Sequence record: OL780484.1
DNA length: 64,000 bases
Reading direction: 5' to 3' (one strand)
Origin: Escherichia phage vB_EcoM-E33
Below the pieces are notes generated by a model that did no database searches, was not told where the DNA came from, and was given only the letters and a program-made list of their open reading frames with translations. The translations under genes were made by a program, and so were the position numbers. Below are positions 7,275-52,208 of this stretch, piece after piece. Position 1 is the stretch's first letter. The number at the start of each line of letters is the position of its first letter.

Positions 7275-7303
7275 GTTTACTTCTTCTAGGGTCGTGATAT
7301 AAT
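7275..7303 (+). promoter_or_regulatory. Early (sigma70-type) promoter for rnh
   Basis: GTTTAC, 17 bp spacer, TATAAT. Confidence 0.75.
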
Positions 7304-7334
7304 GAACCTCTACACTAATTGGACAGAGGTTCAT

Positions 7335-10542: not shown

Positions 10543-10571
10543 GTTTACAACGCCTTTAAACGTGATACTAT
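10543..10571 (+). promoter_or_regulatory. Early promoter cassette
   Basis: GTTTAC, 17 bp, TACTAT, then conserved leader AGACCTATCAACTA...GAGGAAATAAAATG. Confidence 0.75.
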
Positions 10572-10599
10572 AGACCTATCAACTACATGAGGAAATAAA

Positions 10600-10989
10600 A
10601 TGGAAATCGGTAAAACTTATGAACTTCGTCCTGAATGCATTAAAGACTTTATTGAAATGGACGAATATGAAAATAATAAAAGCATGGTCGACCTTATCCA
10701 AGACAACGGAGGTTGGTTTGAAGTAAAGGATATGTTGACTATGGATGGCGACAAATTTGTGACTGAAATCGAATGTGCAAATGGCGAGATTTATAATGCA
10801 TTTGGGTTGGTGCCAAATTATTTTGAGTTGCATGAAGATGAGTTCTATTGCTTCTGTGAATATGTTGTGGAAGATAAAGAAATCGATGAGCCTATTGCTA
10901 AGGCCGGTGTGACTCAAATCCATTGCATTGTCACCGAACAGAACGTTGACCAAATCATTGAACTTTTGCAAAAAACTTTTAAGGCCTAA
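10600..10989 (+). CDS. Hypothetical acidic early protein (frd.x-like position)
   Basis: 129 aa ORF 29 nt downstream of an early promoter, RBS GAGGA; D/E-rich. Confidence 0.6.
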   Translation: MEIGKTYELRPECIKDFIEMDEYENNKSMVDLIQDNGGWFEVKDMLTMDGDKFVTEIECANGEIYNAFGLVPNYFELHEDEFYCFCEYVVEDKEIDEPIAKAGVTQIHCIVTEQNVDQIIELLQKTFKA

Positions 10990-10990
10990 T

Positions 10991-11251
10991 ATGACTAAAG
11001 ATGATTTCCTGGATGCAGTAGAAAAAGCCAGTGAGAAATTTGAAGTGATGGGTGTACGAGTTCATAAAGACCGAAATTACGGGCTCGATATCCAAACTTA
11101 TTCATTATGGCTTGTAGGTGAACATAGTCTTGTAACCACCTTAGTTATGGGTGTTGATGCCCAACCTTTACTGGTTAAATTTAGAAGTATGGAAAAAGCT
11201 ACCAAAGAAATGATTAAGCTTGGTAAATGGCTTGATAAAATTCAAAAATAA
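10991..11251 (+). CDS. Hypothetical early protein
   Basis: ATG 10991 follows the stop of the previous ORF; ORF-track start 10928 is an overlapping upstream extension. Confidence 0.55.
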   Translation: MTKDDFLDAVEKASEKFEVMGVRVHKDRNYGLDIQTYSLWLVGEHSLVTTLVMGVDAQPLLVKFRSMEKATKEMIKLGKWLDKIQK

Positions 11252-11253
11252 GT

Positions 11254-11282
11254 GTTTACAATGCCTTTAAACATGATACTAT
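11254..11282 (+). promoter_or_regulatory. Early promoter cassette (near-identical copy of 10543-10571)
   Basis: GTTTAC, 17 bp, TACTAT, same leader. Confidence 0.75.
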
Positions 11283-11314
11283 AGACCTATCAACTAATGA
11301 GTGAGGAAAATAAA

Positions 11315-11542
11315 ATGGCTAAGGTTAATATTGATATCGTTGATTTTGAATACACTTACGAAGTTATCCGTAATCGTTATCCTTCTTTAGTTATGACCCA
11401 TATTAAAGATACCCAATTCTGTAGTATGCAAATTGAAGTCCAAGGTCCTCTTGAAGACCTTACCCGCTTTATGGCTGACGAGTATTGTGACGGTATGCAC
11501 CTGGAAGACGCTAAATTTTATATGGGCCTAATTCAAAAATAA
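11315..11542 (+). CDS. Hypothetical early protein
   Basis: ATG 11315 preceded by GAGGAAAATAAA leader; an alternative in-frame ATG at 11297. Confidence 0.55.
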
Positions 11543-11572
11543 GTTTACACCAGGCTATGGTAGTGATACTAT
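11543..11572 (+). promoter_or_regulatory. Early promoter cassette
   Basis: GTTTAC, 18 bp, TACTAT; inverted repeat GGCTAT/ATAGCC spans the -10. Confidence 0.7.
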
Positions 11573-11597
11573 AGCCTTATCAACTAAGGAGAATAAA

Positions 11598-13280
<1,683 letters not shown>

Positions 13281-13341: not shown

Positions 13342-13635
13342 ATGAGAGTTTGCAGAGTTGTTAACAAGTATAAAGAAGACTTTGATGTCAATATCCAACG
13401 TGGAACTATGTGGGGTAATCCATTTAAAGATGGAACCCGCGAGGAAAACATCAAGAACTTTAAAGAATACTTTATTGCTAAAATAAAATCGGGCGAAATT
13501 AAAAGAGAACATCTTGAAACCCTTAGAGGTATGCGTATAGCGTGTACCTGTAAACCTAAGGACTGTCATGGGGATGTGATAGCCCTGGTTGTTAACAAAC
13601 TTTTCAAAGACACGTTCTCATTAGAAGACCTATAA
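13342..13635 (+). CDS. DUF4326-like small protein (nrdA.1-like position)
   Basis: 97 aa; WGNPF and C.CKPKDCHGDV motifs as I recall for DUF4326; weak RBS. Confidence 0.6.
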   Translation: MRVCRVVNKYKEDFDVNIQRGTMWGNPFKDGTREENIKNFKEYFIAKIKSGEIKREHLETLRGMRIACTCKPKDCHGDVIALVVNKLFKDTFSLEDL

Positions 13636-13638
13636 ATA
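13631..13638 (+). promoter_or_regulatory. TATAAATA motif upstream of nrdA (possible late promoter)
   Basis: Exact TATAAATA overlapping the stop of the DUF4326-like ORF, 64 nt before the nrdA ATG. Confidence 0.3.
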
Positions 13639-13701
13639 TCAGTCCATGCTTAACAGGTTCTATGATAGAATAATTATAGAACCTAACATATTGAGGAAAT
13701 T

Positions 13702-15957
13702 ATGCAAGTACAAAAAAGTAGTGGTGTATCCCAAGATTTTGACGCACAAAAAATTATTAAAGTTCTGACTTGGGGCTGTGAAGGAACCCAAATCGACCCC
13801 TATGAATTATACGAAGAAATCAAATCCCATCTTCGTGACGGTATGACTACCAAAGATATCCAAAATCTGACTGTTAAGGTAGCAGCCAACCTTATCTCGG
13901 TTGAAGAGCCTGATTACCAATATGTTGCTGCAAAAGAATTGATGTTTGCACTGCGTAAAGAAGTTTATGGGCAGTTCGAACCACGTAGCTTTATCGACCA
14001 TATTTCCTATTGTGTTAACGAAGGTAAATATGACCCTGAATTGTTGTCTCGATATTCTGCAGAAGAAATTACTTTCTTAGAATCTCATATAAAGCATGAA
14101 CGCGATTTCGAATTGACTTATGCTGGTGCGATGCAGCTTAAAGAGAAATATCTGGTTAAAGATAAAACAACCGGTAAAATCTACGAAACCCCTCAGTTCG
14201 CTATCATGTGTATTGGTATGGCCTTACACCAAGACGAGCCGGGTAATCGTTTAGCACATATTATTCGTTTTTATGATGCTGTAAGTACCCGTCAGGTTTC
14301 ATTACCAACTCCTATTATGGCTGGAGCACGTACACCAACCCGTCAATTTAGTTCTTGTGTGGTTATTGAAGCAGGCGACTCACTGAAATCTATTAACAAA
14401 ACTGCTAACTCAATAATTGAATACATTTCTAAACGTGCCGGTATTGGTATCAACGTTGGTATGATTCGTGCTGAAGGTTCTCGTATTGGCATGGGCGAAG
14501 TCAAGCATACCGGTGTTATTCCATTCTGGAAACATTTCCAGACTGCTGTTAAATCATGTTCACAAGGTGGAATCCGTGGCGGCGCTGCTACTGCTTATTA
14601 TCCTATTTGGCATTTGGAAGTTGAAAATCTGCTCGTTCTGAAAAACAACAAGGGTGTCGATGAGAACCGTATTCGTCATATGGACTATGGAATCCAGTTG
14701 AACGACCTGATGATGGAACGTTTCGGTAAGAATGATTACATTACTCTGTTTAGTCCTCATGAAATGGGTGGTGAGCTTTACTATTCTTATTTCGAAGACC
14801 AAGACCGTTTCCGTGAATTGTATGAAGCCGCAGAAAAAGACCCTAGTATTCGTAAGAAACGTATTAAGGCACGTGACCTCTTTGAATTGTTCATGACTGA
14901 ACGTTCAGGCACTGCACGAATTTATCCTCAATTCGTTGATAACACTAACAACTTCACACCATTTATTCGTGAGAAAGCTCCTATTCGCCAGAGCAACTTG
15001 TGTTGTGAAATTGCTATCCCGACTACTGACGTGAATAGTCCTGACGCTGAAATTGGTTTGTGTACGTTGTCTGCATTCGTATTGGATAACTTCGATTGGC
15101 AGGACCAAGACAAAATCAACGAGCTGGCTGAAGTACAAGTACGTGCACTTGATAACCTGTTGGACTATCAAGATTATCCTGTTCCTGAAGCTCTGAAGGC
15201 TAAGAAACGTCGTAACCTGGGTGTTGGTGTTACGAACTACGCCGCTTGGTTAGCAAGCAACTTTGCTTCTTATGAAGACGCTAACGATTTAACTCATGAA
15301 TTGTTTGAGAGATTACAATATGGACTTATCCGAGCATCCATCAAGCTGGCCGAAGAAAAAGGACATTGCGAGTATTATTCAGACACTAAATGGTCTCGAG
15401 GCGAATTACCTATCGACTGGTACAATAAAAAGATTGACCAAATCGCAGCCCCTAACTATGTTTGTGACTGGACGTCGTTGCGGGAAGACTTGGCTAAACA
15501 TGGCATCCGTAATAGCACATTATCAGCACTTATGCCGTGTGAATCAAGCAGCCAGGTTTCCAACTCTACAAACGGTATCGAACCTCCACGTGGTCCGGTA
15601 AGTATTAAAGAATCTAAAGAAGGTAACTTCCGTCAGGTAGTTCCTAATGTAGAACATAACCAAGGACTCTACGATTACGCTTGGACCCTTGCTAAGAAAG
15701 GTAATAAACCTTATCTTACCCAAGTGGCAATAGCGTTGAAATGGGTGTGTCAATCAGCATCAGCGAATACATATTACGACCCACAGATTTTCCCAAAAGG
15801 AAAAGTTCCGATGTCGGTAATGCTTGATGACCTGCTGTATTTCTGGTACTACGGCGGTAAGAACCTTTACTATCATAACACCCGTGATGGCTCTGGTACT
15901 GATGACTACGAAATCGAAACTCCTAAAGCCGACGATTGTGCAGCTTGTAAGCTTTAA
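13702..15957 (+). CDS. nrdA: Ribonucleotide reductase large subunit NrdA
   Basis: 751 aa; ATP-cone N-terminus and class I RNR catalytic region; matches recalled T4 NrdA. Confidence 0.95.
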   Translation: MQVQKSSGVSQDFDAQKIIKVLTWGCEGTQIDPYELYEEIKSHLRDGMTTKDIQNLTVKVAANLISVEEPDYQYVAAKELMFALRKEVYGQFEPRSFIDHISYCVNEGKYDPELLSRYSAEEITFLESHIKHERDFELTYAGAMQLKEKYLVKDKTTGKIYETPQFAIMCIGMALHQDEPGNRLAHIIRFYDAVSTRQVSLPTPIMAGARTPTRQFSSCVVIEAGDSLKSINKTANSIIEYISKRAGIGINVGMIRAEGSRIGMGEVKHTGVIPFWKHFQTAVKSCSQGGIRGGAATAYYPIWHLEVENLLVLKNNKGVDENRIRHMDYGIQLNDLMMERFGKNDYITLFSPHEMGGELYYSYFEDQDRFRELYEAAEKDPSIRKKRIKARDLFELFMTERSGTARIYPQFVDNTNNFTPFIREKAPIRQSNLCCEIAIPTTDVNSPDAEIGLCTLSAFVLDNFDWQDQDKINELAEVQVRALDNLLDYQDYPVPEALKAKKRRNLGVGVTNYAAWLASNFASYEDANDLTHELFERLQYGLIRASIKLAEEKGHCEYYSDTKWSRGELPIDWYNKKIDQIAAPNYVCDWTSLREDLAKHGIRNSTLSALMPCESSSQVSNSTNGIEPPRGPVSIKESKEGNFRQVVPNVEHNQGLYDYAWTLAKKGNKPYLTQVAIALKWVCQSASANTYYDPQIFPKGKVPMSVMLDDLLYFWYYGGKNLYYHNTRDGSGTDDYEIETPKADDCAACKL

Positions 15958-16010
15958 TAAAATCTGATTATAATTGACTCATGGATGAGTCACTAACAAA
16001 TGAGAATAAC

Positions 16011-17189
16011 ATGTCTACAGTTTTTAATACCACCCCAGTTGATGTTTTAGTCGAACCGATGTTCTTTGGTTCAGGATTGGGTATTGCTCGTTATGATATC
16101 CAACGCCATAAAGTATTCGAAGAGCTTTGTGAGAAGCAGTTGAGTTTTTTCTGGCGTCCAGAGGAAGTTAACTTGATGATGGATGCTGCCCAGTTTAATA
16201 AGCTTCCACAATTCCAGCAAAATATTTTTACCAATAATCTGAAGTATCAATCACTTCTGGATAGTATCCAAGGACGTGCTCCTTCTGCTGCACTTCAAGC
16301 CTTGATTTCAGACCCTAGCCTTGATACATGGGTGGCTACATGGACCTTTAGTGAGACTATTCACTCTCGTTCATATACCCATATCATGCGTAACCTCTAT
16401 ACAGACCCGTCAAAGGTATTTGATGAAATTCTGTTAGATGACGCTATTATGAAACGTGCTGAATCTATTGGTCGTTATTACGACGACGTTATTGAGAAAA
16501 CTCGCTATTGGCAGAATGCTAAAGCTGATATCGAATACCAAAAAGAAATTAATGCAGACGAAGACGATATTGAAGATGCTATTGAGCATGAGATGTATTG
16601 GAAGCGTGAGCTAATGAAATCCCTTTACCTTTGCCTTCATGTAATCAACGCATTGGAAGCTATTCGTTTTTATGTATCTTTCGCATGCACCTTTAACTTC
16701 CATAAAAACATGGAAATCATGGAAGGTAATGCTAAGATTATGAAGTTCATTGCACGTGATGAACAGCTTCACCTTAAAGGTACTCAGTACATTATTCGTC
16801 AACTCCAACTTGGTACTGACGGTGACGAATGGGTTAAAATTGCTCAAGAGTGTGAACAAGAAGCAGTTGATATTTTCATGGAAGTTAACCGTCAAGAAAA
16901 AGAATGGGCTGCTCACCTGTTCAAAGATGGTACTTGCCCTGGATTAAATACTCAGAACATGGGTGCTTTTGTCGATTACCTGACAGTTTCTCGTATGAAG
17001 CAATGTGGCTTACCGTGTCCTATTACTGATGCTCCTGCCCGCCATCCTTATCCTTGGATTCGCGAATACCTGAACTCTGATGCTGTACAGGCTGCTCCTC
17101 AGGAAGTGGAAATAAGTTCTTACCTTGTAGCACAAATTGATAACGATGTCGATGAAAAAGTAATGGCATCGTACAAGAAATATTTTTAA
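16011..17189 (+). CDS. nrdB: Ribonucleotide reductase small subunit NrdB, uninterrupted (no intron)
   Basis: Start set at ATG 16011 (MSTVFNT..., as recalled for T4 NrdB); ORF-track start 15981 has no RBS. Confidence 0.92.
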   Translation: MSTVFNTTPVDVLVEPMFFGSGLGIARYDIQRHKVFEELCEKQLSFFWRPEEVNLMMDAAQFNKLPQFQQNIFTNNLKYQSLLDSIQGRAPSAALQALISDPSLDTWVATWTFSETIHSRSYTHIMRNLYTDPSKVFDEILLDDAIMKRAESIGRYYDDVIEKTRYWQNAKADIEYQKEINADEDDIEDAIEHEMYWKRELMKSLYLCLHVINALEAIRFYVSFACTFNFHKNMEIMEGNAKIMKFIARDEQLHLKGTQYIIRQLQLGTDGDEWVKIAQECEQEAVDIFMEVNRQEKEWAAHLFKDGTCPGLNTQNMGAFVDYLTVSRMKQCGLPCPITDAPARHPYPWIREYLNSDAVQAAPQEVEISSYLVAQIDNDVDEKVMASYKKYF

Positions 17190-17194
17190 GGAAT

Positions 17195-17208
17195 GGGGCT
17201 TCGGCCCC
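17195..17208 (+). terminator. Stem-loop between nrdB and denA (attenuator-like)
   Basis: GGGGCttcgGCCCC immediately after the nrdB stop; only a short T run follows. Confidence 0.5.
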
Positions 17209-17216
17209 TTATTGCT

Positions 17217-17630
17217 ATGAAAGAAATCGCAGACGAATTTAGCTTTATCAAGTACGTCACCCTAGAACTCCAAGATGACGCCACCATAGCTCCACTCACA
17301 GTACCAAATAAACAAAATGTCATATATGCTATAGCGGTTGATGATATACTAGTCTACGTCGGGAAGACTAAAAATCTTCGTAAGCGCATCAACTACTACC
17401 GAACCGCTATTAATCGTAAGGACCAAACGTCGGATTCGACTAAGTCCATTCTGATTCATGAAGCATTAATGGCAGGTAAAAAGGTGGAGTTCTATGCACG
17501 GCAGTGCTTTAATCTGTCGATGACTAACGAACTTGGAACTATGTCAGTTGAGACCATGTCTCTTGAAGAGCCAATGTTCATAAAGAAATTTAATCCACCT
17601 TGGAATACCCAACATAGGATAAAGCAATGA
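17217..17630 (+). CDS. denA: Endonuclease II (GIY-YIG family)
   Basis: 137 aa from ATG 17217: MKEIADEFSFIKY...VIYAIAVDDILVYVGKTKNLRKRINYYR matches recalled T4 DenA; the ORF-track start 17193 would include the upstream hairpin. Confidence 0.9.
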   Translation: MKEIADEFSFIKYVTLELQDDATIAPLTVPNKQNVIYAIAVDDILVYVGKTKNLRKRINYYRTAINRKDQTSDSTKSILIHEALMAGKKVEFYARQCFNLSMTNELGTMSVETMSLEEPMFIKKFNPPWNTQHRIKQ

Positions 17631-18775
17631 TTGAATTATATGATAACTTGATGGCCCTGGTTAAAAACTCGACTAAATCTAAGTTCTTCTTTAAAGACTT
17701 TCAGAGTGCTCTAGGAGTCAACTATCGCATCTTTAGTTATAACTACGCATCATACAGTGATTGGTTGGAAGACGGCGCACTAGAGTGCCGAGGCATTATG
17801 TTTGAAATGGACGAGAAAGGTCCTGTACGTATTGCCGCTCGTCCTATGCAAAAGTTCTTTAACCTCGACGAAAACCCTATGACTATCGGTCTGGATTTGT
17901 CGCCAGAAAATATCGACCTCGTAATGGCTAAGGAAGATGGTTCTCTGATTTCTACATTCATGGACCGACAGTATCTTTCTGTTAAATCTAAAGGCTCTAT
18001 CCATTCATCAATGGTGCATGATTCTTTACGGTTCCTTCGTCTCCCTGAGAACGAGGCTTTTGCCGCACGTCTAGAAGAAATCACCAAAGCTGGGTATACC
18101 TGCAACCTTGAATATGTTGCACCTACCAACCGTATCGTGCTGGCTTACCAAGAAACAAATCTCATCCTGTTGAACGTTCGTAATAATGAAACCGGTGAAT
18201 ATATTCCATATGCGGAATTGTTTAAGGACGGCGCACTGCGTAAGCATTTGGTTGAAAGCTATGAGCTCGCTGAGGGCGATTTCGTAGAAAACATCCGTAA
18301 GCAGGAAGGCATTGAAGGTTTCATCTTTGTACTGAAAGATGGTACGTTCTTTAAACTCAAAACCGCCTGGTACAGTGCACTGCATCATACCAAAGATTCC
18401 ATTAACAACAACGAACGTTTGTTTGAAGTTGTAGTGGCTGGTGGAACTGATGACCTTCGTGGTCTGTTCAGTACAGATTCCTTTGCTATCGAGAAAATCG
18501 ATGCCTTTGAACGCATCCATTTAGATTACCTAGAACAATCATTAGCCTTGTTAGAAGCAGCTTACTCTCAACTCAAAGGTCGCGACCGTAAAGACTATGC
18601 CGTTACTGGACAGCTAATCCTTAAGGACTTCCCAGGGTTGTTCTCTATTCTTATGCAGGCGTACGTAGGCGGTATTAATTATGATACGGTCATGGACCAG
18701 ATTAACTCTGTGTTCTTGAAAAATCATAAGGCCCAAATCCCTGAAAAATATTTGAAAGAAATTGTGGTAGAGTAG
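17627..18775 (+). CDS. rnlA: RNA ligase 1 (gene 63)
   Basis: 382 aa; FSYNYASYSDWL, CRGIMFEM, KEDGSL (lysine nucleotidyltransferase motif I) match recalled T4 Rnl1. Confidence 0.92.
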   Translation: MIELYDNLMALVKNSTKSKFFFKDFQSALGVNYRIFSYNYASYSDWLEDGALECRGIMFEMDEKGPVRIAARPMQKFFNLDENPMTIGLDLSPENIDLVMAKEDGSLISTFMDRQYLSVKSKGSIHSSMVHDSLRFLRLPENEAFAARLEEITKAGYTCNLEYVAPTNRIVLAYQETNLILLNVRNNETGEYIPYAELFKDGALRKHLVESYELAEGDFVENIRKQEGIEGFIFVLKDGTFFKLKTAWYSALHHTKDSINNNERLFEVVVAGGTDDLRGLFSTDSFAIEKIDAFERIHLDYLEQSLALLEAAYSQLKGRDRKDYAVTGQLILKDFPGLFSILMQAYVGGINYDTVMDQINSVFLKNHKAQIPEKYLKEIVVE

Positions 18776-18803
18776 TTTACATCTCCTCATGACGTGTTAG
18801 TAT
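18775..18803 (+). promoter_or_regulatory. Early promoter cassette upstream of the alc-like gene
   Basis: GTTTAC, 17 bp, TAGTAT; -35 overlaps the rnlA stop codon. Confidence 0.7.
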
Positions 18804-18833
18804 AGACTTACCAACTAATGAGGAGAAAACAAA

Positions 18834-19334
18834 ATGAATATGCAAATGATTACTAACGAAATGGTTGTTAAGGCTTTTGGTGACTCTACTGACGGCATCC
18901 AAGTTTTTAAAGGTTCTCGTGCAGTAGGTTACCTGACCGATCTTCGTGTCACTTTAGCTAAAAATGCTAAAAAGAAAATCAAGCAAAAAGAATACTCTAC
19001 CCGTTATGCAGAAGAAAAGCGTGAAGCAATGCCTCAAGCTGTTAACTCTATGGTCGAGTTTCTCCAAAACAACCTTTCCAAATACGATGCCGAGGTGTTT
19101 ATTAATATTAGCCAACCTAATGTTAAAATCTCAGGCATCACGTTCTATTTGATTTGCGACCCATTAAGCGACAAGTTTAATCGCCTTGGCATTTCAAGTC
19201 CTTACCATACCGCTGAAGAATTGTGTTTTATGTTCGAAACGTACAAAATTCAGTGTGAAAATCCTAAAACAGTTCTTATTAATTCCCTGTCACGTGATGA
19301 CATCATCGAGATTATTACCAAATGTCTAAATTAA
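18834..19334 (+). CDS. alc: Alc-like protein (positional assignment only)
   Basis: 166 aa ORF between rnlA and the spanins, the T4 position and approximate size of alc; sequence not independently recognised. Confidence 0.5.
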   Translation: MNMQMITNEMVVKAFGDSTDGIQVFKGSRAVGYLTDLRVTLAKNAKKKIKQKEYSTRYAEEKREAMPQAVNSMVEFLQNNLSKYDAEVFINISQPNVKISGITFYLICDPLSDKFNRLGISSPYHTAEELCFMFETYKIQCENPKTVLINSLSRDDIIEIITKCLN

Positions 19335-19962: not shown

Positions 19963-20066
19963 TTGAGACATGCGTTTGCGGTTGGGATGCCGTTAGATTT
20001 GGCGCTGCATTCTTTTGTTTTGGGATTGTGTTCAGCATGTGTATGCATGGTCTTTTCGGAAAGTAG
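19959..20066 (+). CDS. Possible 35-aa hydrophobic Cys-rich peptide
   Basis: ATG overlaps the o-spanin stop (ATGA); translates MIETCVCGWDAVRFGAAFFCFGIVFSMCMHGLFGK; below ORF-track size cutoff. Confidence 0.25.
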   Translation: MIETCVCGWDAVRFGAAFFCFGIVFSMCMHGLFGK

Positions 20067-20095
20067 TTTACAAACTCTTGGGAGCAGAGTATAAT
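20066..20095 (+). promoter_or_regulatory. Early promoter
   Basis: GTTTAC, 18 bp, TATAAT. Confidence 0.7.
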
Positions 20096-20129
20096 GCTCC
20101 TACGGATTATAAAAATTGAGGAAATTATT

Positions 20130-21333
<1,204 letters not shown>

Positions 21334-22027: not shown

Positions 22028-22057
22028 GTTTACACTATGGTAGGACTGTGGTATAGT
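22028..22057 (+). promoter_or_regulatory. Early promoter embedded in a stem-loop
   Basis: GTTTAC, 18 bp, TATAGT; 9-bp inverted repeat GGTAGGACT (22039-22047) / AGTCCTACC (22058-22066). Confidence 0.7.
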
Positions 22058-22087
22058 AGTCCTACCGAAACAAATGAGGAAATCGAA

Positions 22088-22642
22088 ATGAGCCAGTTCT
22101 TTGAAGAGCGTAAGTTTTATAAGTTCGTTGGTGAATACACTAAAAACAAATTCACTAATAACGGTGCTTATGGCCTCAATACAGCTTTTGCTAAGTATGT
22201 GGGTATGAATCCGTTTGAAGTTGAAATTGATTACCATAACGGGAAGCCACGTGTAAGCCGAATTCGTGTATATGACGAGATGATGTTTGTCGACCCGAGC
22301 AAAATGACAGGTGATCCTAATGATGCAAATAGTGTTCTTTTTAATTCATCAGGCTTTTTTAGCCATGAATTCGAATACTTTATCGAAGTGGTAGACCCTA
22401 AAGAACTGCAGTTAGTTTTCCAGAACCCTGAAATCAAACCTATTAAAACTCCGGCCGATTGGAAAGTGCTTATTGTTAAAAATGGTAAGATTGAAGTTCA
22501 TTCTCGCCATAACACAAAGGAACAAGCCGATCGTCAGGCTGAAGAGCTTTTGACTAAGTCGTTCCAACAAGTGTGTTATATTGTTAAAGGCGACGTTACC
22601 CAAGCTACCACTACCAAACAACTTAAGTTGGAGACCATCTAA
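22088..22642 (+). CDS. Hypothetical protein
   Basis: ATG 22088 with RBS GAGGA, downstream of an early promoter embedded in a stem-loop. Confidence 0.6.
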   Translation: MSQFFEERKFYKFVGEYTKNKFTNNGAYGLNTAFAKYVGMNPFEVEIDYHNGKPRVSRIRVYDEMMFVDPSKMTGDPNDANSVLFNSSGFFSHEFEYFIEVVDPKELQLVFQNPEIKPIKTPADWKVLIVKNGKIEVHSRHNTKEQADRQAEELLTKSFQQVCYIVKGDVTQATTTKQLKLETI

Positions 22643-25153: not shown

Positions 25154-25158
25154 GTTAT

Positions 25159-25182
25159 GGGACTCTTCGGAGTCCCATTTTT
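25159..25182 (+). terminator. Intrinsic terminator
   Basis: GGGACTCttcgGAGTCCC followed by ATTTTTGTTT. Confidence 0.85.
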
Positions 25183-25611: not shown

Positions 25612-25640
25612 TTTTACTTTGGTACAGGTTGTGTTATTAT
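25612..25640 (+). promoter_or_regulatory. Early promoter embedded in a stem-loop
   Basis: TTTTAC, 17 bp, TATTAT; perfect 9-bp inverted repeat GGTACAGGT (25621-25629) / ACCTGTACC (25644-25652). Confidence 0.65.
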
Positions 25641-25681
25641 AGACCTGTACCAAATAATACGAAAACAAACTGGAGAATAAA

Positions 25682-26047
25682 ATGAACTACATCAACTTCG
25701 AACGTAAATATGTTTCTAACGGTATCGCTGGTTCTTCTGAAGTTATTTGCCTGTGGAAACACAACAACGGCGCGGTGTGCGAAATCGAACAGTGCATGAC
25801 TCCTAACTACGTTTATATGCGCTTTGAAAATGGTATTACGGTTTCAATCACAATGGAAGGTTCTACTTTTAAAATCGCTTTAGATGATGATTTCCGTCAA
25901 CGTGATTTAGGTACCCATCCTTGCTGGAACGGTGTTAATCGTAAGCTTCTGGTTAAAACTTGGATTCGACACATCCTGAGCAACCGAGCTAAACCTGAAC
26001 ACCTGGAAGCAATCTTTGATGTAGTTCTGAACGAATTCGACATCTAA
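25682..26047 (+). CDS. Hypothetical early protein
   Basis: 121 aa, own early promoter and RBS GGAGA. Confidence 0.6.
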   Translation: MNYINFERKYVSNGIAGSSEVICLWKHNNGAVCEIEQCMTPNYVYMRFENGITVSITMEGSTFKIALDDDFRQRDLGTHPCWNGVNRKLLVKTWIRHILSNRAKPEHLEAIFDVVLNEFDI

Positions 26048-33896: not shown

Positions 33897-36020
33897 ATGG
33901 AAAATTTAAACGAAGTTTTTGATAGTGATTCCGCTAAAAACTATCCAGTAACAAATCTTAAACCGGGTTCCGGTATTCCACAGATTTTCTCTATCCAAGC
34001 GCCAGGTAACGATAACCTGGTTGCTCGTATGGTATCTTATGCGTCTGAAGGCGATGCTATTAAAATGGTTAAGCCAGGCGATAAGTACGTCCATGTCATC
34101 CTAATGAGTTTATCTGCTAAAGGCGCCCCGGCAGAACTCAAGGGTGGTTTGGGTACCGATCCACTCGGTACACTGAACACCATTTTCGATACCATATATG
34201 AACAAATAAACAAACTTAAAATGGACGCGGTTTTGTTCCGTTTCCCTACTAAGAAAATGAAAGGTAAAGGTCCTACCGTTCAGCGCGTATTAGCTCGCTT
34301 GGCTATGGCTCGTACCGGTGGTAAGTTTAAAGTTGTTGACGACATGTTCCAATTCAGCGGAAAACATACCTACGTTCTTTTAGTACGTCGTGGTGCTAAT
34401 ATTGAAGATATCAAGGGTATGCCTGAAATTAATGCCGATCTTTATACTAAAGTTGAGTCTAAAGTTGGCGAAGTGTATGTTTCTAAGAAAACCGGCCAGG
34501 CTGTAAGTAAGGTCGAAGCCGTAGCGGCATCTATTGCACAAGTTGAAGAGAAACGTACTGATAAGGCTGTCATTACTCGTACTAAGATTTCGCGTCGTAT
34601 GGCAGCGGCGGCGCAGTATTCTACTGCTGAGCCTGAAACTTTGTCCCCTAAAGAATTGCAGGTTTATAACGAGTTTGAAGCTTCTGTACCGGTTCACACG
34701 GCTGAAGGCCCTGAGAATGAAGGTATTGAACAGATTAGTCAGAACTTTAAAAAAGGTGCTATTACCAAAATGCGCCAGGCTTCTCAGTTTAAATCTAAGA
34801 GCGAGGACCTTGCCAACTTTAGATACACTATTGCTCTCACACACGCTTTAATGACTGATAGTAAATTTAAACTAAATTATGCTAATAGAGATAAACAAGG
34901 GTTTGAAATTTACTCTAATAATATGGCATTTTTTAATACAGAAGTCGATAGACTTTTAAGTGGCCTTTCGCAAATCAATACAACCAATAGTCTGGATATT
35001 ATTAAGAAAATTGTTAATAACCTGAGTACCCGTTTTAAGGGTTCCCCTTCAGAGAAAGCATCTAGAATTGCTTTCGCTATGGAAGCCGTTTATAAACTGG
35101 TTAACGATTCTATTAGTGATGCATATGCTTATTCAGGCGAGCTCATTAAACCTAAGGACCTAACCAAAGACGAAAGCAATGCTATTATTGAATATTGCGC
35201 GGCTGAATATGCTCCTATGAACTTATTCCTTTTAGGTAAACCTGAATCCGAAAACAATACAACGGCTATTAAATTGATTAAGGATTTAGACTCGGCATTT
35301 ACTAAGGGTATTAAACTTCCTAAGGGTACTATTTTGTATCGTGGTCAGGATTTGCCATACAAAATTCTGCGCCATAATATCGATAACAAAACATTTTACT
35401 TTAAGAACTTTGTGTCAGCCTCACTAAAACCTAACATCTTTGGTGAATTTGGTAAAAATTATATGGCCCTCGACAACCAAGCCGTTTTTGTTGGCGGTGA
35501 AGGTTCTTTGTCCTCAGCTGATGAGTTGTTTAAATTGGCTAGTGGTAGTTCATCTGATGTGGGTGAAGTCGATGACGAAGAGGTAGAATGGGAAGAAGAC
35601 GAGTTCGGTAATCCAATTGCACCTGAAGGTCCTGCGGATAGAATTGCTGAAATTGGTATGGTTATTCGAGGTGCTGAAGCAGTTAAAGTTATCGCTCCTG
35701 GTGACCTTACAGAATATGCCGAAGAAGCAGAAATTATCCTTCCGCGTGGATTATTGTTGAAGGTTGATAAAGTAGCGGCTTTTGCCATGAATGATAGAGT
35801 ATCTCACAAATACCTTATGGAAGCTACCGTAACGCCTCCTTCAGAGCTCAGCGAATCTGTTTACGATGGCGACCATTTGATGGAAACTGGTGAAGTTCGC
35901 CTGATGGATGGATTCAGTCAATTCTTGGTTAATGAATCCGTTTCTGAAAGCAACGAAGCTATGGAAATCCTTGCCGCGTCTTTGGATATCTCTTCTTTAT
36001 CAAATAAATTCAAAATGTAG
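33897..36020 (+). CDS. Alt-like ADP-ribosyltransferase, paralog 3
   Basis: 707 aa; shares N-terminal region; LYRGQ, FVSASL, EEAEIILPRG. Confidence 0.85.
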   Translation: MENLNEVFDSDSAKNYPVTNLKPGSGIPQIFSIQAPGNDNLVARMVSYASEGDAIKMVKPGDKYVHVILMSLSAKGAPAELKGGLGTDPLGTLNTIFDTIYEQINKLKMDAVLFRFPTKKMKGKGPTVQRVLARLAMARTGGKFKVVDDMFQFSGKHTYVLLVRRGANIEDIKGMPEINADLYTKVESKVGEVYVSKKTGQAVSKVEAVAASIAQVEEKRTDKAVITRTKISRRMAAAAQYSTAEPETLSPKELQVYNEFEASVPVHTAEGPENEGIEQISQNFKKGAITKMRQASQFKSKSEDLANFRYTIALTHALMTDSKFKLNYANRDKQGFEIYSNNMAFFNTEVDRLLSGLSQINTTNSLDIIKKIVNNLSTRFKGSPSEKASRIAFAMEAVYKLVNDSISDAYAYSGELIKPKDLTKDESNAIIEYCAAEYAPMNLFLLGKPESENNTTAIKLIKDLDSAFTKGIKLPKGTILYRGQDLPYKILRHNIDNKTFYFKNFVSASLKPNIFGEFGKNYMALDNQAVFVGGEGSLSSADELFKLASGSSSDVGEVDDEEVEWEEDEFGNPIAPEGPADRIAEIGMVIRGAEAVKVIAPGDLTEYAEEAEIILPRGLLLKVDKVAAFAMNDRVSHKYLMEATVTPPSELSESVYDGDHLMETGEVRLMDGFSQFLVNESVSESNEAMEILAASLDISSLSNKFKM

Positions 36021-36049
36021 TTTACAACACCACAAGGATGTGGTACTAT
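36020..36049 (+). promoter_or_regulatory. Early promoter
   Basis: GTTTAC, 18 bp, TACTAT; -35 overlaps the stop of alt paralog 3. Confidence 0.7.
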
Positions 36050-36077
36050 TACCTTACACAAACATGAGGAGAACATT

Positions 36078-36368
36078 ATGAAATCTGCATTCCGTTTTAA
36101 TGGTCAAGAACTGGTAGTTGAAAACGTTATCCCTGCTTCTGAAGAGTTTGACAGTGCAGTGGGTAATGAATTACGTCGAGTTTTCGGTGAAGACAAACAG
36201 TTTGATATCCGACCTGTTGAGAATTTTTCTTATCCAGAACAAACCGAAAACATTTTTAACGGTGTAGTGACAGGACAACTCGAATCCGAAGCTCCTATTT
36301 CGGTTACGGTGTTTGTTAAAAAGCAACCACTAATGACCACAGCAGGTTTCATTTCGTTCCGTAAATAA
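36078..36368 (+). CDS. Hypothetical protein
   Basis: 96 aa ORF with own early promoter, RBS GAGGAG, followed by a bidirectional terminator. Confidence 0.55.
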   Translation: MKSAFRFNGQELVVENVIPASEEFDSAVGNELRRVFGEDKQFDIRPVENFSYPEQTENIFNGVVTGQLESEAPISVTVFVKKQPLMTTAGFISFRK

Positions 36369-36375
36369 ACCCCTA

Positions 36376-36402
36376 AAGGAGAGCATATGCTCTCCTTTTT
36401 TG
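36376..36402. terminator. Bidirectional terminator between convergent plus-strand early block and gene 54
   Basis: AAAGGAGAGCATATGCTCTCCTTTTTT palindromic hairpin with flanking T/A runs. Confidence 0.85.
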
Positions 36403-46195: not shown

Positions 46196-46203
46196 TATAA
46201 ATA
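46196..46203 (+). promoter_or_regulatory. Late promoter for inh/hoc
   Basis: TATAAATA 34 nt upstream of the inh ATG. Confidence 0.65.
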
Positions 46204-46209
46204 TAGTTA

Positions 46210-46217
46210 TATTTATA
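46210..46217 (-). promoter_or_regulatory. Late promoter for uvsW
   Basis: Minus-strand TATAAATA 29 nt upstream of the uvsW ATG. Confidence 0.65.
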
Positions 46218-47810: not shown

Positions 47811-47840
47811 GTTTACAAGTTAAAAATTCTATGTTAAGAT
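47811..47840 (+). promoter_or_regulatory. Early promoter (weaker -10)
   Basis: GTTTAC, 18 bp, TAAGAT. Confidence 0.5.
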
Positions 47841-47869
47841 GGGTTTACCAACTCAACGAGAGAATTGAT

Positions 47870-49201: not shown

Positions 49202-49209
49202 ACGATAAA

Positions 49210-49236
49210 GGGACCTTACGGTCCCTTTTATTTTTC
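49210..49236. terminator. Bidirectional terminator between rnlB and the gp24 paralog
   Basis: GGGACCttacGGTCCC followed by TTTTATTTTT. Confidence 0.8.
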
Positions 49237-51833: not shown

Positions 51834-51863
51834 GTTTACAGCAAGATTCTCACATGTTACTAT
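51834..51863 (+). promoter_or_regulatory. Early promoter reading antisense to the late capsid block
   Basis: GTTTAC, 18 bp, TACTAT. Confidence 0.7.
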
Positions 51864-51892
51864 AGACATATCAAAACATGAGGAGATTAAAA

Positions 51893-52159
51893 ATGAACAA
51901 GTTAAACTTTATTCGTACTACTCTTTCCGCTCTTGATAAAGACATCAAAGCTCTGGTAGAAAAATTCGGTAACAATCCTAATGGTAATGCAGTGAATGCC
52001 TTAGTTAAGAAATACGAAGCCATGGCTTATGCTACCGACTTCTGGTGGAACGGTGAATACTCTACCCATACCAAAGACAAATCTGGTAACTGGCTGAAAA
52101 TCCAAGAAAATCGTATTGACTTCCGTGATATCATCAACCGCCGAGTTAAGATTGCATAA
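51893..52159 (+). CDS. Hypothetical early protein encoded antisense to the late capsid block
   Basis: ATG 51893 with RBS GAGGAG behind an early promoter; lies where T4 has segD (as I recall) but shows no endonuclease motifs. Confidence 0.55.
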   Translation: MNKLNFIRTTLSALDKDIKALVEKFGNNPNGNAVNALVKKYEAMAYATDFWWNGEYSTHTKDKSGNWLKIQENRIDFRDIINRRVKIA

Positions 52160-52174
52160 TACAGAAACAAGAAT

Positions 52175-52192
52175 GGGAGACCGAAGTCTCCC
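52175..52192. terminator. Terminator hairpin between the 51893 ORF and gene 23
   Basis: GGGAGACcgaaGTCTCCC; on the minus strand the loop reads UUCG and a T-rich run follows. Confidence 0.7.
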
Positions 52193-52208
52193 ATAATAAG
52201 GTTATATC

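Follow-up and report, generated by a model that had tools for sequence, protein, structure and literature searches.

We analyzed a 64,000-nucleotide (nt) stretch of the genome of Escherichia phage vB_EcoM-E33 (sequence record OL780484.1), hereafter called the window, with a focus on the gap between rnlA, coding for RNA ligase 1, and alc, coding for an inhibitor of host transcription. We found that the strong early promoter located in this gap lies inside an RNA hairpin, in which the spacer separating the -35 and -10 hexamers pairs with the Shine-Dalgarno (SD) sequence of alc. The two arms of this hairpin covary across genera, which shows that selection acts on the pairing itself. We consider it probable, with an estimate of roughly 0.6, that the hairpin provides promoter-dependent masking of the ribosome-binding site (RBS), meaning that only RNA begun at alc's own early promoter would be translated.

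In the mechanism that we propose, the promoter spacer, which would otherwise be unconstrained in sequence, encodes an anti-SD segment. The immediate-early alc mRNA would begin past this segment, and its RBS would be open and translated. RNA entering from upstream, presumably delayed-early or middle RNA of the nrd-denA-rnlA unit, would hold both arms, fold, and bury the SD, with poor or no translation of alc as a result. Alc would in this way be made only for as long as its own early promoter is active, and its synthesis would cease upon the shut-off of early promoters despite continued transcription across the gene. We infer both the existence and the amount of such read-through RNA, as well as the effect of the hairpin on translation.

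The alc promoter and its hairpin

The sequence-only reading of the window had described a perfect 9-base-pair (bp) inverted repeat around the -10 of an early promoter, and direct reading, enumeration of repeats, and a consensus scan all confirmed it. The repeat consists of TCTCCTCAT (18782 to 18790) and ATGAGGAGA (18818 to 18826), separated by a 27-nt loop. The promoter, found on the + strand by the consensus scan, is of the T4 early, sigma-70 type, with the -35 hexamer TTTACA (18776 to 18781; GTTTACA with G18775) beginning right after the rnlA stop codon, a 16-nt spacer, and the -10 hexamer TAGTAT (18798 to 18803), which is extended by a TG at 18796 to 18797. The 5' arm, representing the anti-SD segment, takes up the first 9 nt of the spacer, while the -10 hexamer is found in the hairpin loop. 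According to both sequence reading and folding, the 3' arm holds the alc SD sequence GAGGAG (18820 to 18825), which ends 8 nt ahead of the alc ATG (18834), as had been proposed. From promoter geometry alone, we infer that transcription starts at A18810 (18809 to 18811), 7 nt past the -10. The arms of the repeat flank both the -10 and this expected start, which lies about 20 nt past the 5' arm and 7 to 9 nt short of the 3' arm. Because the 5' arm sits between the -35 and -10 hexamers, RNA started at the promoter lacks it, in agreement with the earlier claim, and TCTCCTCAT occurs only in RNA begun upstream of the alc promoter. The GTTTACA sequence at the -35 is invariant in 33 of 33 aligned orthologous regions, the promoter hexamers are kept in all orthologues, and the equivalent site is an annotated promoter in the record of Morganella phage MP1.

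The identity of the two genes was assigned by Pfam. The alc coding sequence (18834 to 19334, + strand) encodes a protein of 166 amino acids (aa) that matches PF17527 (ALC) with an E value of 1.2e-40 and is 51% identical to T4 Alc; the gene had previously been called alc-like. The open reading frame (ORF) upstream, read as rnlA (17627 to 18775, + strand; stop codon TAG at 18773 to 18775), is indeed RnlA, with matches to RNA_lig_T4_1 and T4_Rnl1_C. The intergenic gap measures 58 nt.

A 9-bp inverted repeat is by itself not unusual in the window. We counted 19 perfect 9-bp repeats with loops of 3 to 40 nt, compared to 10.6 ± 2.9 in shuffled sequences, and this excess is in part due to four canonical intrinsic terminators (25157 to 25178, 36375 to 36398, 49207 to 49228, and 52173 to 52194). 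These have 9-bp G/C-containing stems, loops of 4 to 6 nt, and T-runs, and two of them carry UUCG-type loops. The alc repeat is more than a chance occurrence on account of its position, its fold, and, above all, its covariation in orthologous loci. The alc hairpin does not have the makeup of an intrinsic terminator, as AAAACAAAATG follows the stem and the terminator scan did not report the site. The window matches no Rfam 15 family at the gathering score, and only sub-threshold noise was seen around the alc site.

We then turned to the folding of read-through and promoter-proximal RNA, a comparison which the sequence-only reading had suggested. Both the minimum free energy (MFE) and the centroid structures pair 18782 to 18790 with 18818 to 18826. 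The bare hairpin has a predicted energy of -15.6 kcal/mol (z -3.9 versus shuffles), and the region from 18775 to 18850 folds at -17.6 kcal/mol (z -3.6), compared to -4.2 kcal/mol (z +1.1) for the RNA from 18810 on, which is without stable structure. For T4, the equivalent region has a predicted energy of -29.5 kcal/mol (z -4.4), and RNA begun at the T4 promoter is likewise predicted to be unstructured. In 12 of 12 further orthologous regions, the SD-pairing hairpin is the MFE structure, with energies of -15.1 to -25.4 kcal/mol and z scores of -3.1 to -7.1. RBS helices of such stability reportedly cut translation by orders of magnitude, as described by de Smit and van Duin in 1990.

As a measure of SD accessibility, the probability of being unpaired was averaged over positions -14 to -5, both for a read-through RNA of 190 nt and for an RNA starting 7 nt past the -10. 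In the window, this value is 0.24 for the read-through RNA versus 0.79 for the promoter-started RNA. The corresponding values are 0.01 versus 0.56 in T4, 0.01 versus 0.82 in Karamvirus, and 0.00 versus 0.75 in locus L043, and the SD is less open in the read-through RNA in every class-1 locus. The claim that read-through RNA could occlude the RBS is in agreement with the predicted accessibilities, as it is with the covariation of the pairing.

Covariation of the hairpin arms across T4-type phages

We gathered alc-upstream regions from annotated phage genomes, IMG/VR contigs, and metagenome contigs (labeled L followed by a number), giving a collection of 59 distinct sequences. We found 14 arm-sequence families, T4 among them, that differ in the letters of their arms and are alike in geometry. 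The arm pair of the window, TCTCCTCAT/ATGAGGAGA, is shared with JS98, and the other pairs are TCTCCTCATG/CATGAGGAGA in VR5, TCCTCATTTCGTT/AACGAAATGAGGA in Winklervirus, TCTCCATTTGGTT/AACCAAATGGAGA in Karamvirus, CCCATTTTGTT/AACAAAATGGG in Kanagawavirus, and ATCCTCATCAG/CTGATGAGGAT in Klebsiella phages. The T4 pair, CCTCGTGTTGTGTTA/TGACATAACATGAGG, forms 15 bp, including three G-U pairs, and can be extended to 18 bp. Further arm families are represented by L032/L034, L036, L037, L043/L048, L067, and L068. In most of the 14 families, the 5' arm starts no more than 1 nt from the end of the -35, and the 3' arms end 3 to 8 nt before the ATG. The helix, 9 bp in the window phage, reaches 10 to 18 bp in its relatives; the loops measure 12 to 29 nt, and the stems are not G/C-rich. 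Compensatory changes keep the pairing from T4 to phages of Klebsiella, Enterobacter, and Erwinia, and G-U pairs on the sense strand are found not only in T4, since L074, L075, L030, and L081 show G-U-preserving transitions.

To quantify this pairing, we used an alignment-free swap test, in which 5' windows were combined with 3' windows from other families. Watson-Crick stems formed by a family's own arms had a mean length of 10.7 bp, compared to 5.7 bp for cross-family combinations, and the observed sum was not attained in any of 20,000 permutations. In the in-register seed alignment, 96.2% of the cells were paired, and the covariation score was 0.28, versus 0.13 in shuffled alignments (0 of 500 reaching the observed score) and at most 0.10 in slid controls. 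A covariance model built from this seed was used to align 20 non-seed sequences, among them that of T4 and one from a locus sharing the promoter region of the window. Here, 93.6% of the cells were paired, compared to 67% in shuffles, 10 of the 13 pairs showed double-sided changes, and the covariation score was 0.604 versus 0.204 when shuffled (0 of 500), with slid controls not exceeding 0.21. An alignment fitted to a model is biased toward the structure of that model, while the swap test is free of any alignment. Two other approaches were abandoned. A plain MAFFT alignment of 33 promoter regions placed the 3' arms out of register and was dropped for pair counts, and a first model search over all loci was discarded, as minus-strand echo matches and unrelated promoters were mixed in.

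Upstream transcription and alternative explanations

The source phage is a Dhakavirus, a T4-type coliphage similar to JS98 and QL01, and the region is 99.7% identical to that of phage QL01. The genes on the + strand follow the order nrdB (15981 to 17189), denA, rnlA, alc, pseT.3, pseT.2, and pseT, the identity of DenA having likewise been assigned by Pfam. The true start of denA is probably the ATG at 17217 (MKEIADEF...), the mechanical ORF start at 17193 being too far upstream. rnlA is co-oriented with alc, and on the + strand from 18520 to 18834 the scan detected nothing resembling a terminator. Ahead of nrdB, a pattern match alone revealed a possible MotA-type middle promoter (AGCTTTA, 12 nt, TATAAT; 15950 to 15974, + strand), which might be the origin of a nrdB-denA-rnlA RNA reading into alc. 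The early promoters at 10543 to 11543 are further candidate sources of read-through. A late promoter ahead of rnlA was rejected as a source, as the late-promoter consensus TATAAATA is absent from the + strand between 13631 and alc; in T4, it is not found within 1.5 kb upstream. Time-resolved omics data classify T4 Alc as early RNA and early protein, rnlA and nrdB as early RNA and late protein, and denA as middle RNA and late protein (PMC9697503 supplement). These timing classes fit, without proving it, a translation of Alc that is uncoupled from that of its upstream neighbors.

rnlA and alc are neighbors in most genera examined, an extra ORF being located between them in Gaprivervirus and in Acinetobacter phage 3014. 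In the VR25/VR20-like Gaprivervirus loci L006, L024, L026, and L028, this small ORF is itself annotated as "inhibitor of host transcription." Ahead of this ORF stands the hairpin AAGGGGtgtacaagCCCCTT, with the -35 in its loop and a T-rich run after it, and this element is a true terminator-plus-promoter cassette.

Several observations weigh against promoter-dependent masking. No spacer/SD pairing was found in Mosigvirus, Morganella phage MP1, or Aeromonas phage phiAS4, nor in Acinetobacter phage 3014. In Serratia phage 92A1, L025/L027, and L031, a strong hairpin surrounds the -10 and leaves the SD free, its 3' arm ending 15 to 18 nt before the ATG. Because the hairpins of these lineages leave the SD free, a hairpin at the rnlA-alc junction could serve another purpose. 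In the window itself, the stem has just 9 bp with a 27-nt loop, and the SD is still unpaired with a probability of 0.24 in the 190-nt RNA. G-U pairs are only modestly in excess of A-C mismatches, with 14 versus 5 cells, or roughly 8 versus 3 to 5 events. The rnlA stop codon lies 5 to 11 nt from the 5' arm (21 nt in one family), so that ribosomes terminating there might loosen the stem at its base. As for the supply of read-through RNA, the lack of a consensus late promoter upstream of rnlA means that it must derive from early or middle promoters farther up. Between the nrdB stop and the denA start, moreover, a C(UUCG)G tetraloop hairpin, GGGGCTTCGGCCCC (17195 to 17208), is followed by TTATTGCT, and this terminator-like element may limit read-through toward rnlA and alc.

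The lineages with a free SD also bear on a different explanation. T4-type phages are known to carry cassettes that combine an early promoter with a stem-loop (PeSL), which were described by Arbiol et al. in 2010 and Comeau et al. in 2014 and have been taken for terminators or attenuators as well as sites of recombination (PMC2839356; PMC4122927). The alc hairpin could be such a cassette, terminating or attenuating rnlA transcription and doubling as a recombination site, with the SD pairing being incidental. The order of elements is similar, namely a stop codon, a strong early promoter, a stem-loop, the SD, and the ATG. Other early promoters of the window bear stem-loops around the -10 (22039 to 22066, 25618 to 25654, and 20080 to 20101), and the alc orthologues L011, L025, L027, and L031 have a hairpin that does not cover the SD. 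The variants with a free SD resemble PeSL cassettes, and so do the Serratia-phage loci L008 and L055, in which the SD pairs with an A/T-rich segment upstream of the -35, including 1 to 3 G-U pairs; as A/T-rich segments pair readily, the latter pairing is suggestive only. Cassette exchange is also seen. In VR5 (L014, region 775 to 834), alc has the 5' untranslated region (5'UTR) ccttacacaaacatgaggagaacatt, and the window gene at 36078, whose promoter is at 36020, has the very same 5'UTR (36050 to 36077). Likewise, a ATGGTAGGACTGTG..TAGTCCTACC stem-loop is common to the L025/L027 alc promoter and the window promoter at 22028 (22034 to 22066). Judging from these sequences, promoter halves or cassettes appear to have been exchanged between genes. 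However, the 3' arm is followed by AAAACAAAATG rather than by a U-tract, most orthologues being alike in this respect, the loops are long, and the stems are not G/C-rich. PeSL stems occupy five positions, that is, upstream of the -35, over the -35, between the boxes, over the -10, or from the -10 to the start (PMC2839356). None of these reaches the SD, whereas at alc the stem extends from the spacer as far as the SD and holds the -10 and the start in its loop. PeSLs are also located in hyperplastic regions near variable ORFs and indels, unlike the alc element, which lies between conserved genes. Because of the missing U-tract, the long loop, and the conserved flanking genes, the alc element is not a typical PeSL. 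Finally, 14 families place the 3' arm on the SD despite the constraint on the SD sequence, which a pure terminator would not predict. We therefore regard this explanation as unlikely.

Promoter-dependent masking also has to be weighed against translational coupling, in which the SD on polycistronic RNA would open only when the stem is melted by a ribosome that completes rnlA, making Alc proportional to RnlA. The rnlA stop codon precedes the 5' arm by 5 to 11 nt in 15 of 16 families, and a ribosome terminating there would be close enough to contact the helix at its base. Ribosomes are said to unwind mRNA to about 5 to 6 nt past a stop codon in the A site, a finding attributed to Takyar et al. 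in 2005. A terminating ribosome would thus open only 0 to 2 of the 9 to 18 bp, the gap between stop and arm is 10 nt in T4 and L037 and 21 nt in L068, and T4 Alc and RnlA belong to different protein-timing classes (early versus late), making coupling improbable. The same hairpin could instead act on RNA stability or processing, either by shielding the GGAG of the SD from RegB or as a 3' stabilizer of a processed rnlA message. RegB cleaves early SD sequences at GGAG, a cut against which secondary structure offers protection (PMC3014915). The SD of the window does contain GGAG, but in T4 and several other families the hairpin is retained although its arm lacks GGAG (having GAGGAC, GAGGAA, or GAGAGG), and the RNAs that need to be translated are the promoter-started ones, which are devoid of the protecting arm. 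A role of this kind is thus very unlikely. Even less can be said for a palindrome acting at the DNA level, as a protein site or a cruciform modulating the promoter, or for a chance repeat. The repeat does flank the -10 and the start, and about 10 perfect 9-bp repeats per window are expected by chance, but the arm sequences covary instead of being conserved, contrary to what a sequence-specific protein site would require, G-U pairs are tolerated on the sense strand, and chance is excluded by the permutation test. We consider both of these extremely improbable.

Other promoters of the window and known masking systems

To see whether SD masking is a general trait of early promoters, we compared 11 good early promoters on the + strand of the window. 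Only one of them, that of alc, combines a strong spacer/SD stem with a large shift in accessibility. The shift was largest at alc, followed by the promoter at 47811 (0.23 versus 0.72), and was small at the remaining promoters. A general trait was hence rejected, with masking indicated only at alc and, more weakly, at 47811. At the latter promoter, the spacer sequence AATTCT (47826 to 47831) pairs over 6 bp with AGAATT (47860 to 47865), beside the SD of a 69-aa ORF. PeSL-type stem-loops located around or before the -10 are found at the early promoters at 22028 to 22090, 25612 to 25684, 20066 to 20132, 11543 to 11600, and 36020 to 36080, examples being GGTAGGACT/AGTCCTACC at 22039 to 22066, TTTGGTACAGGT/ACCTGTACCAAA at 25618 to 25654, and a further stem-loop at 20080 to 20101. 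In these, the SD is not paired.

The sequence-only reading had pointed to a similar, imperfect arrangement at 51846 to 51887. As a description this holds, since 6 and 4 bp are separated by an internal loop, but as a functional element it does not. The fold is weak (-10.9 kcal/mol, z -1.9), and its 5' half is altered in close relatives, where a compensating change is absent; it was thus rejected as a conserved element. The pairing is partly explained by two self-complementary CATG motifs. The promoter at 51834, a good early promoter, precedes an 88-aa ORF (51893 to 52159) without a Pfam match, which is located between genes 24 and 23 on the opposite strand. In T4, segD occupies the same position in the same odd orientation (PMC2988022).

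A second perfect 9-bp repeat associated with an SD, ATGAACCTC (7302 to 7310) and GAGGTTCAT (7326 to 7334), was found at the start of rnh, coding for RNase H. Its 3' arm coincides with the SD, and there is an overlap between its 5' arm and both the -10 and start of the early promoter at 7275. This repeat is lost in the close relatives L087 and L089 and is not present in other genera. We therefore did not retain it as a conserved masking element and take it to be lineage-specific or due to chance. Its loss makes it a negative control, showing that such repeats are not automatically kept.

Two sites with the late-promoter consensus were also noted in the window. At 13631 to 13684, TATAAATA (13631) and a MotA-box-like TGCTT (13647) are followed by a 9-bp repeat, AGGTTCTAT/ATAGAACCT (13655 to 13684), ahead of an SD. 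At 46196 to 46217, the palindromic pair TATAAATAT / ATATTTATA presents the consensus on both strands, which is consistent with divergent late promoters.

Promoter-dependent RBS masking is established in T4 for e (lysozyme), soc, 49, and I-TevI (PMC3014915), and the genes regulated in this way are all late genes carried on long early or middle transcripts (PMC2988022). In these genes, as well as in I-TevII, I-TevIII, segB, and mobE of Aeh1, the SD pairs with an upstream segment, as it does in alc. The promoter is likewise located between or within the arms, the proximal RNA being translated and the long polycistronic RNA being silent (PMC3014915; PMC2988022). The earlier proposal of a T4-like arrangement is thus supported as far as the mechanism is concerned, while the timing is inverted, the published T4 cases involving late promoters and late genes (PMC3014915; PMC2988022). 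Their internal promoter, late and occasionally middle, delays translation, whereas alc is an immediate-early gene with a sigma-70-type early promoter, and the predicted effect would be to end translation at early-promoter shut-off. No TATAAATA was found near alc on the + strand, so that alc does not share the late-promoter trait of the published cases. The alc element further differs in that its 5' arm is the promoter spacer itself. Another comparison is offered by seg43(25) of Aeromonas phage 25, where a stable hairpin stands just ahead of the RBS without covering it. Similar hairpins precede alc in Serratia phage 92A1, L025/L027, and L031, unlike in the window, where the SD of alc lies within the stem.

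The mechanism as such is not new, and the version found at an early gene with an early promoter is a variant of T4 masking. The T4 alc hairpin is not mentioned in PMC3014915, PMC2988022, or the PeSL papers, although older T4 literature, including the 2003 genome review, may mention it. A literature search for papers on the alc (gene 63) promoter returned nothing relevant, the earlier T4 literature being outside its scope. The words "ribosome" and "translation" are absent from the 2010 PeSL paper (PMC2839356). One could go further and see in the spacer-encoded anti-SD a distinct design, a shut-off timer confining Alc to the first minutes, and suppose that PeSL stem-loops may mainly be translational insulators between early cistrons rather than terminators. 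We offer this broader proposal tentatively and think it doubtful.

RBS-masking hairpins, reviewed so far as a means of delaying late genes that lie in early units, thus appear here at an immediate-early gene and within an early promoter. T4 itself carries the element, as an 18-bp helix with three G-U pairs. The conserved alc hairpin points to the opposite use of such structures, which would be to end the translation of an early protein while transcription continues through its gene. At least some of the promoter-plus-stem-loop cassettes of T4-type phages may merit re-examination for translational rather than transcriptional effects.

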